Made by a program: the position numbers | Part shown: positions 56,201 through 62,200 of the stretch, piece by piece | How the letters are laid out: each line of letters starts with the position of its first letter | Numbering within the stretch: position 1 is the first letter of the stretch | Source of the DNA: Escherichia coli | GTDB lineage: Bacteria > Pseudomonadota > Gammaproteobacteria > Enterobacterales > Enterobacteriaceae | Length of the DNA: 64,000 nt | Direction: 5' to 3' (one strand) | NCBI RefSeq assembly: GCF_030384885.1 | Contig: NZ_CP128613.1

Positions 56201-59200
56201 TTCAACCCCCGGAAACGATAAAAATTCCCTTGAAACCGTTGTTTATTCATGCGTTGCGATTAACAATACGCTTTTCCAGAGAGCGGCTTTTAACAATGCC
56301 CTAACCTGATTTCAGGTGACGTACAATGCCAGTCTCTCAGACCTTCAGAGGGTGTTATGCTATATATCTTTCGTCTTATTATTACCGTGATTTACAGCAT
56401 CTTAGTCTGTGTATTCGGCTCCATTTACTGCCTTTTCAGCCCGCGTAACCCGAAACATGTAGCCACCTTTGGGCATATGTTTGGTCGTCTTGCGCCGCTG
56501 TTCGGCCTGAAAGTTGAGTGTCGCAAACCTGCAGATGCTGAAAGCTACGGCAATGCTATTTATATTGCTAACCACCAGAACAACTATGACATGGTGACAG
56601 CATCGAACATCGTGCAACCGCCGACGGTGACGGTAGGTAAAAAGAGTTTGCTGTGGATCCCCTTCTTTGGTCAGTTGTACTGGCTAACCGGCAACTTATT
56701 GATCGACAGAAATAACCGCACTAAAGCTCACGGCACCATTGCAGAAGTAGTGAATCACTTCAAAAAACGCCGTATTTCCATCTGGATGTTCCCGGAAGGT
56801 ACCCGCAGCCGTGGTCGCGGCCTGCTGCCGTTCAAGACCGGAGCATTTCACGCGGCAATTGCGGCAGGCGTCCCGATTATTCCCGTGTGCGTCTCTACAA
56901 CTTCGAATAAGATTAATCTTAATCGACTGCACAATGGCTTGGTTATTGTCGAAATGCTGCCGCCAATTGACGTGAGTCAGTATGGTAAAGACCAGGTTCG
57001 CGAGTTGGCTGCCCATTGTCGTTCGATAATGGAACAAAAAATCGCTGAGCTCGATAAAGAAGTCGCAGAACGCGAAGCCGCCGGAAGAGTTTAAGTCGGC
57101 AATCTGTATTTTTGCGGGGAACACTTTCCTGCACGGTATTACTTTAGCCAGTTTTACATGGAGCAAATATGTCACTCAGTCGGCGTCAGTTCATTCAGGC
57201 ATCGGGGATTGCACTTTGTGCAGGCGCTGTTCCCCTGAAGGCCAGCGCAGCCGGGCAACAGCAACCGCTACCCGTTCCGCCGCTGCTTGAATCTCGCCGT
57301 GGGCAACCGCTGTTTATGACTGTACAACGTGCGCACTGGTCATTTACGCCAGGAACGCGCGCATCGGTCTGGGGAATCAATGGTCGTTACCTGGGGCCGA
57401 CTATCCGCGTCTGGAAGGGCGATGATGTTAAGCTGATCTACAGTAACCGCCTGACAGAAAATGTCTCAATGACGGTGTCTGGTTTACAGGTGCCTGGCCC
57501 GCTGATGGGCGGTCCGGCACGGATGATGTCGCCAAACGCTGACTGGGCACCCGTATTACCCATTCGCCAGAACGCAGCGACATTGTGGTATCACGCTAAT
57601 ACCCCCAATCGCACGGCTCAGCAGGTCTATAATGGCCTTGCCGGAATGTGGCTGGTGGAAGATGAAGTCAGCAAGTCGCTGCCTATCCCCAACCATTATG
57701 GTGTGGATGATTTTCCGGTCATTATCCAGGATAAACGGCTGGATAACTTTGGTACGCCAGAATACAACGAACCGGGAAGCGGCGGCTTTGTTGGAGATAC
57801 GCTGCTGGTCAACGGTGTACAAAGCCCGTACGTTGAAGTCTCGCGTGGCTGGGTGCGCTTGCGACTGCTGAACGCGTCGAACTCTCGTCGCTATCAACTG
57901 CAGATGAGCGATGGTCGCCCGTTACATGTGATTTCTGGCGATCAGGGATTCTTGCCTGCTCCTGTATCGGTGAAGCAACTTTCGCTGGCACCGGGCGAGC
58001 GCCGCGAGATTCTGGTGGATATGAGCAACGGTGATGAAGTGTCGATCACCTGTGGCGAAGCGGCGAGCATTGTTGATCGTATTCGTGGCTTCTTTGAGCC
58101 ATCCAGCATTCTGGTTTCTACGCTGGTGCTCACGTTGCGCCCTACCGGGCTACTGCCGCTGGTTACTGACAGCCTGCCGATGCGCCTGCTGCCAACTGAA
58201 ATTATGGCCGGTTCGCCGATTCGCAGTCGCGATATCAGTCTGGGTGATGACCCGGGTATCAATGGGCAGCTGTGGGACGTCAACCGTATTGATGTCACCG
58301 CGCAGCAAGGAACGTGGGAACGCTGGACGGTACGCGCGGACGAGCCGCAAGCGTTCCATATTGAAGGCGTGATGTTCCAGATCCGTAACGTGAATGGCGC
58401 GATGCCGTTCCCGGAAGACAGAGGCTGGAAAGATACCGTTTGGGTTGACGGACAAGTGGAGCTGCTTGTTTATTTCGGTCAGCCTTCCTGGGCGCACTTT
58501 CCGTTCTACTTCAACAGTCAGACGCTGGAAATGGCGGACCGTGGCTCGATTGGGCAACTGTTGGTCAATCCGGTACCGTAATGGACCAATTCAATGCCCC
58601 ACAGAGTGGTGGGGCGATACAAGGATGAATCATGGATGGCATGGGATGGATGATTATTTTGGTACTTCCCTTTCTTTGGATGGGCTATGGACTGGCGTTG
58701 TTAATCATAACGGGGTGCGCTTTTGAATCTAAGAGGATTCGTCGCGTTCTGCTATGGGGTGTTGCGCCCCAGTTTATTATTCTTTGTATTACGACCTTAT
58801 TGCTTTATTGGATTAACTCTCGGTTAATTTATGTTTTTGTCTTTTTTCAGCCGGTTTTATGCATCACTACGGCAATTTTTTTGTTTGCTGGTAAAAAAAC
58901 ACAATATTCCAGATTGCTGTTTACTCTGTCTCATGTGATTTTTCTCGCTGGAGTTTTATATCAGGGGCATAGGGAAAATCTGCAACACATAATTAATAGC
59001 GACTGGAAGGAATATAAAATAACGCGTTTATTTGAGCAAGTGCAGGACAATGGAGCGCATGCGCTGAATAACGATGTAACTTGTTCAGAATTAATGCAAC
59101 TACTCACCCTGGCAGCGGAACGTGATGACGTCAAAGAAGAGACGTTACGTACTCTTATTGCAAAGAGAGTATCGCCATTTCTGACAATGTCAGATAACTG

Positions 59201-62200
59201 TACGGGTGAGGATTCAGTAGAGATTTATTCTGTAGATACTACACCTTTTATGGCGGCTATTCAGAATCATAATATACATTCTGTTCGTTTTTTTAGTCAA
59301 TTGCTTATGGGAAACTCACCAAAAGCAAAAAATAATCGTGACATTGTGCGCCGGGCAAACCCTTTGATCGAAGTGTATAAATATAGTCATGGTTCAAAAA
59401 AACAACGTAACTCAGGGTTAGAAATAAGTAAGCAATTAATCGCTATTATGCCAGAACTATTAACAGATGCCGTCTGGCGTGCCGTGCTCAATGTATATGA
59501 TGCCGATGCAGCACGATGGTTCTGGCGTAAGCAACCACCAGAAAATCGGTTGTATCGCTTAAAGGCTATGGCATTAATACCACAAACAGATGCGCTGTTG
59601 GCAGAGATTCGACATACTCCAGAGGTACTGAATATCTCGTCTGAGGGGGACCTGAATGAAGAGGAGTTTCTCCATTTCTTAATTTATGGAGGAGATACCG
59701 CTGTAATACATGCACTGGTTGAAAAAGGAATAGTTAACTGGCAGCACCTTATGAACATTGAGGGGTTTGATAAGGACCCCTTAATATGGTCTATTTCAAA
59801 ACTGGGAGAAAACGACAATGACCGGGAGGTTTTGGCATTAATTATTCATGATATTAATGCGCAAAACGCACTGCCGGAGGAACGCATTGCCAAATATTTA
59901 ACGTGGACGGGAGCAATGGGCGAGATTTTTTTAAAGGCGGGCGTACATTGTGATAAGTTATATGCGGCAATTGAGTCCGACAAAAAGCGAAATAATGGCA
60001 TGTATAGTCAAAACGCCAGGGAAGAAGTGGATCGCGTATGTACGCCCACAAAATAGGAGCAGTTTGGGGCGGTTAAGGGATAAAAAATAAATGCCTTTCG
60101 CTATCTGTCAGGGCGAATCTCACCATTTGCTATACCTTCCATTGGCGATGAACAGTATTCTACCCGCACTTTTTTTACGATTGCGTTGAAGCATTACAAC
60201 GCCCGCGCCATCCGCGCGTTTAGCCGCTTTCTGCAAGGAAATTCCTCAAAAGCGCAGGAATATCGCGCGATTGTTCATCAAAAAAATCCACTGCAGCAGA
60301 TGTACCGGGGAATAAGTTTGCCAATTCGTTTTAGTGAAGAAGAGATCGCCCGCCACATTGTTGCCGCTCGCGAGATAAGCCTCACCTTGCTGCCCCTGAT
60401 GCCAGAATTATTAAACGAAGAGGCGTATGCAAATGTCATTGATGCTAATGACAGCGCAACGCTGAAGGCTTTTTGGCAGATCCAGCTGCCGCCCACGCCG
60501 GTTTTACGCCTGGAAGCGATGTCGGTAATTCCCATGACAGCGGCACTGGTTCAACAGGTGAGGGAGTCACCAAAGCGGCTTGAACTGGAAGATAAAAGTG
60601 GCAGGACAGTACTAACTTACATCGTGCGCTTTGGGAATATTGCCGCAGTACAGGCACTGATTGACGCTAATCTGATCGACTGGCAACGGCTCCGCCAATC
60701 GACAGGAAGGTCAACACCATTATTACTGGCGATCTGGCGACAAAAATACGACGATGATTATGTAATCTTCCCATTGATTTTAAAGGACATGCTGGCAAAA
60801 AATGCGCCACCCTCAGCAGAGGAAATAATGAACTGCATTAAGGATGGTATGACCGCAGATGATTTTTTATCTGCCGGAATGAGCAACACGCAATTCTGTT
60901 CTGCGATTGAACAAAGCCTCCAGGCGAAAACGTCAGTATTACCGGCGAATCGATTACGCCATCTGCAATCCTCGCGGTGTGCAAAGCTGTAACCAACCGG
61001 AAGTTAAGTCATCCGCTGAAAACATCGCATTAACTTTTCGATTTCTCTTTCGTTCCGGCTTATAATCCCCGGCCTTTGATTATTTTTTTATCATTTCTGG
61101 AAGCAAAATGAGCTCTATCTCCCTGATCCAACCGGATCGCGACCTGTTCTCCTGGCCGCAGTACTGGGCCGCCTGTTTTGGACCGGCACCGTTTTTGCCG
61201 ATGTCTCGTGAAGAGATGGATCAACTTGGCTGGGATAGCTGCGACATCATTTTGGTTACTGGCGACGCGTATGTCGATCACCCAAGCTTCGGGATGGCGA
61301 TTTGCGGTCGTATGCTTGAAGCGCAGGGCTTTCGCGTCGGGATCATCGCCCAGCCAGACTGGAGCAGCAAAGACGATTTCATGCGTCTGGGTAAACCGAA
61401 TCTGTTTTTCGGTGTTACTGCTGGCAACATGGACTCGATGATCAACCGCTATACCGCCGATCGCCGTTTACGTCATGACGATGCCTACACACCGGATAAC
61501 GTCGCGGGTAAGCGCCCGGATCGCGCCACCCTGGTTTATACCCAACGCTGTAAAGAGGCGTGGAAAGATGTGCCGGTGATCCTCGGCGGTATTGAGGCTA
61601 GTTTGCGTCGTACCGCGCATTATGATTACTGGTCTGATACCGTGCGCCGTTCCGTGCTGGTGGATTCCAAAGCCGACATGCTGATGTTCGGTAACGGTGA
61701 GCGTCCGCTGGTGGAAGTGGCGCATCGTCTGGCGATGGGTGAGCCGATTAGTGAAATCCGCGATGTGCGTAATACCGCGATTATCGTAAAAGAGGCGTTG
61801 CCAGGCTGGAGCGGTGTGGATTCCACCCGTCTTGATACTCCTGGGAAAATCGACCCGATCCCGCATCCGTATGGTGAAGATTTGCCGTGCGCGGATAACA
61901 AACCGGTGGCCCCGAAAAAGCAGGAAGCGAAAGCCGTAACCGTGCAGCCACCGCGCCCGAAACCGTGGGAAAAAACTTACGTATTGCTGCCTTCTTTCGA
62001 GAAAGTGAAGGGCGATAAAGTGCTGTACGCTCATGCTTCGCGTATTCTGCACCATGAAACCAACCCAGGCTGCGCGCGTGCGCTGATGCAAAAACATGGC
62101 GACCGCTATGTATGGATCAACCCGCCTGCCATCCCGCTTTCTACCGAAGAGATGGACAGCGTCTTTGCGCTGCCGTACAAGCGCGTGCCGCATCCGGCTT

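Follow-up and report, generated by a model that had tools for sequence, protein, structure and literature searches.

Genes at the ftsP-ygiQ junction

The DNA analysed here is a stretch of 64,000 nucleotides from Escherichia coli (RefSeq assembly GCF_030384885.1, contig NZ_CP128613.1), referred to below as the window, which is 100% identical to E. coli 2013C-4282 (NZ_CP027579) and in which two open reading frames, ORF1 and ORF2, lie between the genes ftsP and ygiQ, the order on the + strand being parC, plsC, ftsP, ORF1, ORF2 and ygiQ. We found that ORF1 is an intact gene, predicted to encode a membrane-anchored protein with an ankyrin-like domain, and that ORF2 is most likely the remnant of a paralog. 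A sequence-only reading of the window had placed the two frames at 58632..60056 (474 aa, ATG start) and 60186..60992 (268 aa, TTG start) and had regarded them as a gene pair foreign to K-12, in which ftsP and ygiQ are adjacent. Both coordinates proved correct, and the segment carrying the pair was present in 13 of 5,426 complete E. coli genomes (sources: human, cattle, pigeon and guinea fowl), with ftsP joined directly to ygiQ in the remainder. The variable segment is made up as follows.

58586..58631, + strand: spacer between ftsP and ORF1, containing a hairpin with an 8-bp stem (58595-58616) and no U-tail (sequence, K-12 alignment)
58632..60056, + strand: ORF1, intact gene of 474 aa with an ATG start, RefSeq WP_000348903.1, 'hypothetical protein' in the Prokaryotic Genome Annotation Pipeline (PGAP)
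58641..58973, + strand: predicted membrane anchor of ORF1, four transmembrane (TM) helices (hydropathy, AlphaFold2 secondary structure)
58980..60053, + strand: predicted soluble domain of ORF1, residues ~117-474, with degenerate ankyrin-like repeats arranged in an all-alpha solenoid
60057..60089, + strand: spacer between ORF1 and ORF2, with a deletion junction (alignment to E. coli GF4-3)
60090..60992, + strand: ORF2 remnant, codons 170-469 of a 469-aa paralog, anchor and native start absent
60993..61032, + strand: 3' end of the variable segment (K-12 alignment)

Anchor and ankyrin-like domain of ORF1

The ORF1 product is listed in UniProt as an 'Uncharacterized protein' (A0A1Q6B411). Hydropathy and AlphaFold2 (AF2) placed its four TM helices at residues 4-30, 34-61, 66-85 and 90-114; within the second of these, the pair P46-Q47 (Pro-Gln) is nearly invariant, the column being conserved in at least 90% of 20 family members. 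In the full-length AF2 model (predicted local distance difference test score, pLDDT, 73.6), the four TM helices are followed exclusively by helices. Because this model was poor in the TM region, the soluble domain was modelled separately, and residues 113-474, with an alignment of 19 sequences, gave a pLDDT of 87.9 and a predicted template-modelling score of 0.83. Structure comparison assigned the domain to the ankyrin-repeat fold, in which helix-turn-helix repeats of ~33 residues stack into an L-shaped solenoid, and the family profile matched PDB ankyrin domains (KANK2 ankyrin repeats) with E 1.2e-4. Foldseek searches with the full-length model retrieved insignificant, generic ARM/ANK solenoids alone from the PDB (E>=1e-3, template-modelling scores 0.2-0.35) and its own family from the AlphaFold Database. 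Judged from these models, the term 'ankyrin-like' is correct at the level of the fold, most of the repeats being degenerate, and the architecture proposed in the sequence-only reading, a polytopic anchor followed by an ankyrin-like domain, was recovered. The domain terminates in a helical hairpin bearing a conserved cysteine pair, C440/C470.

Two other Pfam matches of ORF1, 7TMR-DISM_7TM (E 0.14) and LRAT (E 0.87), were discarded as noise. A lipoprotein interpretation, prompted by the lipobox-like 'ITGC' at residues 26-29, was rejected, since the n-region carries no positive charges and the cysteine is not conserved in the family.

The distribution of charged residues suggests an orientation for the protein. 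Of the 19 members in which four or eight TM helices could be resolved, 17 have two to four Lys/Arg residues in loops 1 and 3, against 0-2, mostly 0-1, at the N-terminus and in loop 2. Because these loop charges fit the positive-inside rule, both the N-terminus and the repeat domain would face the periplasm. The C-terminal cysteines are spaced 24-30 residues apart in all 17 members with a complete C-terminus; the column of C470 is Cys in 17/17, and its partner falls at the C440 position in 12/17, the others having it at another point of the same helix. In the domain model, helix 328-341 begins with one cysteine and helix 347-358 ends with the other, which places the pair at the open end of an antiparallel hairpin, and the last hairpin may therefore be stapled by a disulfide, which would fit an oxidising compartment. 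A second pair, C151/C190, is conserved in the clade of ORF1. The reverse topology, in which a cytoplasmic ankyrin domain would act as a membrane-tethered scaffold or regulator recruiting a cytoplasmic partner, like most characterised ankyrin proteins, appears fairly improbable, because the Lys/Arg bias of loops 1 and 3 holds consistently over 20 family members, an eight-TM variant included, the even number of TM helices together with a short, uncharged or acidic N-terminus favours an N-out/C-out arrangement, and the occurrence of the cysteine pair in every complete member is best explained by a disulfide formed in an oxidising compartment.

In the family alignment, residues P182, A209, N214, P274, P330 and L333 are invariant, and P46, Q47, A161, L175, F206, L225, R236, P244, L245, L276, P303 and W370 are nearly so. 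No conserved constellation of the catalytic Ser/His/Asp/Cys type was found in this alignment. As the conserved residues appear to be structural positions typical of a repeat scaffold, the proteins are probably non-enzymatic.

ORF2 as a truncated second paralog

The sequence-only reading had also taken ORF2 to be a paralog of the ORF1 domain. The homology held (29% identity over 260 aa in BLASTP, E 1e-35), but ORF2 is neither intact nor free-standing: the 268-aa frame is the 3' two-thirds of a gene deleted at its 5' end, a remnant of a 469-aa paralog with four TM helices. In E. coli GF4-3, ORF2 is a complete 469-aa frame with its own four hydrophobic N-terminal segments, and pairwise alignment showed that 519 bp of the GF4-3 sequence are absent from the window, the deletion having taken the ribosome-binding region, the ATG and codons 1-169. 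The junction lies between 60088 and 60089 (+/-3 bases), at an AAA/AAAT microhomology, with position 60089 corresponding to nucleotide 507 of full-length ORF2, where the match begins. The frame is open from 60084, and its first in-frame start is the TTG at 60186, which has no Shine-Dalgarno sequence. PGAP begins the gene at another TTG (60318..60992, 224 aa, WP_227456947.1) and names the product 'ankyrin repeat domain-containing protein', a label that in this strain denotes a 5'-truncated remnant. The deletion is common to three of the 13 carrier genomes, namely 2013C-4282 and two Korean MFDS isolates, whereas the other ten carry a segment of 3,045 bp with full-length ORF2 DNA, compared with 2,526 bp in the deleted form. 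In the carrier EC2641, an insertion sequence (IS), IS1, lies between ORF1 and ORF2, and ORF2 is split.

The product of the remnant retains a Pfam Ank_2 match (independent E-value, i-E, 3.5e-4; 21.5 bits; residues 128-187). From its sequence, ORF2 in the window is most likely a non-functional remnant or pseudogene, since a protein with neither anchor nor export signal could probably not reach the periplasm. Its ratio of nonsynonymous to synonymous substitution rates (dN/dS), 0.26-0.29, slightly above that of intact ORF2, is compatible with a pseudogene but not decisive.

Distribution and synteny of the family

A word-seeded search of 5.8 billion proteins returned nothing beyond close relatives in Escherichia and one Superficieibacter protein of 50% identity. 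A profile search of all 1.84 billion representatives detected about 20 full-length family clusters, along with many unrelated multi-repeat ankyrin proteins that matched only profile positions ~320-365. Named members occur in E. coli, E. whittamii, E. albertii, Salmonella salamae and S. enterica, with split copies in Typhi; in Pseudocitrobacter, Atlantibacter hermannii, Enterobacter cancerogenus, Superficieibacter and Phytobacter; and in Klebsiella grimontii/pasteurii, Erwinia rhapontici and Serratia, the family thus being confined to Enterobacterales. Almost every one is annotated as hypothetical or uncharacterised, and the few exceptions bear generic names, for instance 'ankyrin repeat domain-containing protein' and 'membrane protein'. 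A pattern search for conserved stretches in 100,044 species genomes yielded three loci through one narrow pattern and is not a census.

In six other taxa, family genes occupy the same position after ftsP, as follows.

E. whittamii: tandem genes of 483 + 469 aa
E. albertii: ORF2-type gene only
Escherichia sp. MOD1-EC7003: ORF2-type gene only
Salmonella salamae: single ORF1-type gene, 37% identity
Pseudocitrobacter corydidari: genes of 587 + 472 + 123 aa
Superficieibacter electus: genes of 428 + 120 aa

Wherever ygiQ fell inside the fetched stretch, it followed the family genes; the E. albertii loci showed no ygiQ. Tandem duplication is seen again in E. whittamii and Pseudocitrobacter, and copies that are split or truncated were found in S. 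Typhi, S. enterica, E. coli and Superficieibacter. Because this position is shared with these six taxa, the locus is an old resident of the ftsP junction that has been repeatedly duplicated, degraded and lost, rather than a recent foreign cassette. The horizontal acquisition suggested by the sequence-only reading is therefore too simple, for besides the homologs at the same site, no mobility genes or repeats accompany the segment, and tblastn found no homologs in 72,556 plasmids and 50,697 phage records. More specifically, we found no integrase, transposase, IS or tRNA target in the variable segment, which contains just the two ORFs, and no direct or inverted repeats of note flanking it. Insertion of a mobile element or genomic island was rejected for these reasons, and also because the site is occupied in other genera.

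Other copies lie away from ftsP. For example, the S. enterica copy is between ISL3 and IS1, that of Atlantibacter is between unrelated genes, and that of Erwinia adjoins yegD-like and MASE1-GGDEF genes. Directly downstream of the Enterobacter cancerogenus copy (locus 7425-8460), the opposite strand carries a Barstar-family gene (PF01337) and two small ORFs lacking annotation; NCBIfam gave nothing informative for the neighbour genes of distant members, these small ORFs included, and the Barstar-family neighbour is no more than a weak hint. At the Pseudocitrobacter corydidari junction (features at 3428-4900 and 5178-6941 of the fetched locus), a LemA and M48-peptidase gene pair is present on the opposite strand, and the 587-aa member of this species has a duplicated membrane anchor, with eight TM helices and a second 'FPQ' motif.

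The sequence-only reading had further mentioned toxin/immunity or host-interaction contexts, and in the loci examined neither was seen, there being no adjoining toxin or secretion gene. As ankyrin repeats are typical of the secreted effectors of intracellular bacteria, and as the E. coli carriers come from animal guts, the proteins might be imagined as eukaryote-like effectors delivered to, or displayed for, a eukaryotic host. This is very improbable: four TM helices are predicted to hold the protein in the inner membrane, neither ORF1 nor ORF2 has a secretion signal or an adjoining secretion system, and the family extends to environmental and plant-associated Enterobacterales (Erwinia rhapontici and Superficieibacter).

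Divergence and selection

We calculated dN/dS by the Nei-Gojobori method. ORF1 had values of 0.19-0.21 against its orthologs in E. coli GF4-3 and E. whittamii, and intact ORF2 had 0.20-0.23, compared with 0.006-0.05 for ftsP. With dN/dS of about 0.2, both paralogs are therefore real, constrained genes, and ORF1 in the window is intact and under purifying selection. The proteins have also diverged, by sequence comparison, far faster than FtsP: between E. coli and E. albertii, ORF2 is 69-70% identical and FtsP 97.5%, and between ORF1 and the syntenic S. salamae gene identity is 37%, as against 92.6% for FtsP.

As the sequence-only reading had noted, both frames are richer in AT than their flanks. 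GC content (and GC at third codon positions) is 0.41 (0.39) in ORF1, 0.49 (0.51) in the ORF2 remnant and 0.56 (0.60) in ftsP; along the sequence it is 0.38-0.43 over ORF1, 0.47-0.52 over ORF2 and ~0.55-0.58 in ftsP and ygiQ. Such a composition is compatible with silencing, and one may ask whether the genes are dispensable relics of no current function, decaying neutrally and yet to be deleted in a few lineages. Absence from 99.8% of complete E. coli genomes, the frequency of truncations, splits and IS insertions, and the relaxed constraint relative to flanking genes would all agree with decay. We nevertheless consider it unlikely, since dN/dS of about 0.2 at dS up to 0.86 indicates continued purifying selection on intact copies, full-length ORFs are kept in at least 10 genera, and even members of 16-25% identity share the structural motifs and the cysteine pair.

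The position of the genes also raises the possibility that they are envelope or cell-division accessories working with FtsP, a Tat-exported periplasmic divisome protein, and co-transcribed with ftsP. ORF1 is on the same strand, about 50 bp 3' of ftsP, with no intrinsic terminator or terminator-like site predicted between them; the arrangement recurs in Escherichia, S. salamae, Pseudocitrobacter and Superficieibacter; and FtsP and the ORF1-type products are both predicted to act in the periplasm. However, almost all E. coli lack these genes although ftsP is universal, the distant members in S. enterica, Atlantibacter, Enterobacter cancerogenus and Erwinia are away from ftsP, evolution at least 10-fold faster than that of FtsP would be unexpected in the partner of a conserved protein, and vertical descent alone explains the synteny. 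A role with FtsP thus seems to us a slim prospect.

Recombination between Escherichia lineages may have contributed to the present allele. Relative to E. whittamii, dS of ORF1 (0.20) is below that of the adjacent ftsP (0.54), and nucleotide identity is 0.89-0.95 inside the segment and 0.80-0.94 in most flanking bins. As the segment is by both measures closer to E. whittamii than its flanks are, we tentatively suggest its exchange between Escherichia lineages by homologous recombination. Relative to GF4-3, dS was 0.16 for ftsP, exceeding the 0.095 of ORF1.

Boundaries and neighbouring sequences

Alignment to K-12 placed the left edge of the variable segment directly 3' of the ftsP stop codon, and similarity to K-12 returns at ~61033, 75 bp 5' of the ygiQ ATG (61108). 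Where the window has ORF1 and the ORF2 remnant, K-12-type genomes have a 36-bp spacer containing a hairpin; no clear deletion scar was found in the K-12 ftsP-ygiQ spacer by alignment. The spacer between ftsP and ORF1 contains an AAGGA Shine-Dalgarno-like motif six bases 5' of the ORF1 ATG, and its predicted RNA fold (-19.7 kcal/mol, z -1.56) is not exceptional. A GC-rich hairpin thus stands right 3' of the ftsP stop in both alleles (the K-12 spacer and window positions 58595-58616), with different sequences, GCCCCAC/GTGGGGC in the window and ACTCGCCC/GGGCGAGT in K-12, and the ftsP mRNA may have here a structure conserved at its 3' end. Scans for promoters and terminators gave counts not above those of shuffled controls, and an Rfam scan of 58000-64000 detected no RNA genes, its sole match being a chance snoRNA (E 0.45).

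The parC-yqhD neighbourhood (52400-64000 and beyond) is about 94-98% identical to K-12 in 300-bp bins, with lows in the 3' half of ygiQ (0.91-0.93) and in the ygiQ-yqhH spacer (0.86-0.91), and from this profile it may be a mosaic or recombinant region. An extra Lpp-like gene (63366-63596, - strand; WP_001037461.1, 'LPP leucine zipper domain-containing protein' in PGAP) lies between ygiQ and yqhH (63614-63871). The Lpp-like/yqhH stretch is covered to at least 80% in 18 of the 5,426 complete E. coli genomes, its yqhH part being ~93% identical to typical E. coli, and E. whittamii has two LPP-family genes at the corresponding place. The occurrence of this rare gene 2.3 kb from the ankyrin genes suggests that they share a divergent haplotype. 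Just past the end of the window lies yqhG (~63922-64848), named 'YqhG/Tai3 family protein' (DUF3828) in some RefSeq records; two DUF3828 genes are found at the corresponding place in Superficieibacter. Tai3 is an immunity family for type VI secretion system (T6SS) amidases, and yqhG may be an orphan immunity-like gene ~3 kb from the ankyrin genes.

Possible function and comparison with known systems

Bacterial ankyrin-repeat proteins are known mostly as secreted effectors, few of them, such as AnkB and Tli, being periplasmic. In the reading that we prefer, the accessory locus 3' of ftsP is old and evolves fast, and the window carries a rare allele of it; the locus would originally have comprised two tandem paralogs of ~470 aa, each with an N-terminal four-helix inner-membrane anchor followed by a degenerate ankyrin-like solenoid of ~350 aa. 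The N-terminus and the solenoid would be periplasmic and the final hairpin stapled by a disulfide, so that the solenoid would present a membrane-tethered binding surface for a periplasmic protein. Taken as a whole, this reading, of a rare allele of an old locus encoding an anchored binder that faces the periplasm, seems to us evenly balanced between being right and being wrong.

A more specific role is suggested by analogy with Tli of Enterobacter cloacae (PMC11470151). This periplasmic lipoprotein with six ankyrin repeats cups the T6SS lipase Tle and neutralises it, and lipases of the Tle6 group are 'invariably' paired with ankyrin-repeat immunity genes. Like Tli (PDB 9CYS, 7UBZ), the proteins described here would be periplasmic, membrane-tethered, non-enzymatic binders built on a predicted all-alpha ankyrin solenoid in an enterobacterium. 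On account of this analogy, together with the fast change, patchy presence and paralog arrays of the family, we suggest that the proteins might capture and neutralise an incoming periplasm-acting toxin, as an orphan immunity-type function. Such orphan immunity, or a decoy role, is the most likely specific function, although we hold it to be more doubtful than probable. The wider proposal that the family is an undescribed class, restricted to Enterobacterales, of periplasm-facing anchored ankyrin receptors, acting as stand-alone immunity proteins or decoys against competitors' toxins (T6SS lipases, bacteriocins) and diversifying beside ftsP by tandem duplication, rapid change and repeated loss, is more speculative still, and we regard it as rather unlikely. 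In the libraries and literature searched, we found no description of a conserved four-TM anchor joined to a periplasmic ankyrin solenoid with a disulfide staple, and literature searches on ygiQ with ankyrin and on the RefSeq accession brought up no mention of the locus. If orphan immunity is the true function, the locus would illustrate, in a simple form fixed in the chromosome, how enterobacteria retain and shed their defences against the toxins of competitors, and it would help in the search for the cognate toxin; otherwise, it is a rare, strain-variable pair of hypothetical genes of modest importance.

Several observations weigh against the preferred reading or its functional extension. No toxin, lipase, Rhs, contact-dependent inhibition or T6SS gene was found beside any family member in the window and the family loci examined; the anchor is a conserved four-TM domain, not a lipoprotein signal; immunity cassettes do not usually keep one chromosomal position from genus to genus; and we found neither sequence similarity nor specific structural similarity to Tli (9CYS/7UBZ). 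The periplasmic topology would draw on the positive-inside rule and cysteine conservation as its lines of support. In sequence the ankyrin signal is weak: with the Pfam ankyrin models (Ank, Ank_2, Ank_3 and Ank_4), ORF1 fell short of significance (best Ank_2 i-E 1.7), the ORF2 remnant gave the Ank_2 match noted above, and just one of 19 family members reached E<=1e-3. Finally, NCBIfam, PADLOC and PHROGs gave no meaningful match for ORF1 or ORF2 (no PADLOC defence model matched, and the sole PHROGs match had E 0.36), and the statement of the sequence-only reading that no function could be assigned still stands for both proteins in the libraries searched.

The family departs from Tli in that no lipase or T6SS gene adjoins its members in the window and the nine family loci with gene tables, and in that its N-terminus is a four-TM anchor where Tli has a lipoprotein signal. 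The second periplasmic example, AnkB of Pseudomonas aeruginosa, is under 200 aa long and is held at the inner membrane by a single N-terminal hydrophobic anchor. It is summarised as an ankyrin-like protein that is encoded in the katB-ankB operon and acts in the periplasm (Howell et al. 2000, cited in PMC12754779). ORF1/ORF2-type proteins would resemble it as inner-membrane-held bacterial ankyrin-repeat proteins acting in the periplasm. They differ from it in their length of ~470 aa with four TM helices and in having ftsP and ygiQ as neighbours and no catalase, whereas AnkB shares its operon with the catalase KatB.

The combination of ankyrin repeats with a four-helix membrane domain is also found in the plant ANK-TM PGG proteins of the ACD6/ITN1 type, and a PGG-domain protein was among the Foldseek matches, with an insignificant E of 0.09. 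ORF1 has no Pfam PGG match, and homology to the plant proteins is unsupported. In the plant proteins the ankyrin domain is N-terminal, so that the order of domains is reversed in the present family, whose motif is the Pro-Gln pair in the second TM helix. Compared with canonical ankyrin domains (PF00023, PF12796, PF13637; e.g., IkB-alpha 1NFI, KANK and DARPins), the repeats described here are mostly too degenerate for Pfam, and the N-terminal four-TM fusion and the C-terminal hairpin, probably stapled by cysteines, are specific to the family.

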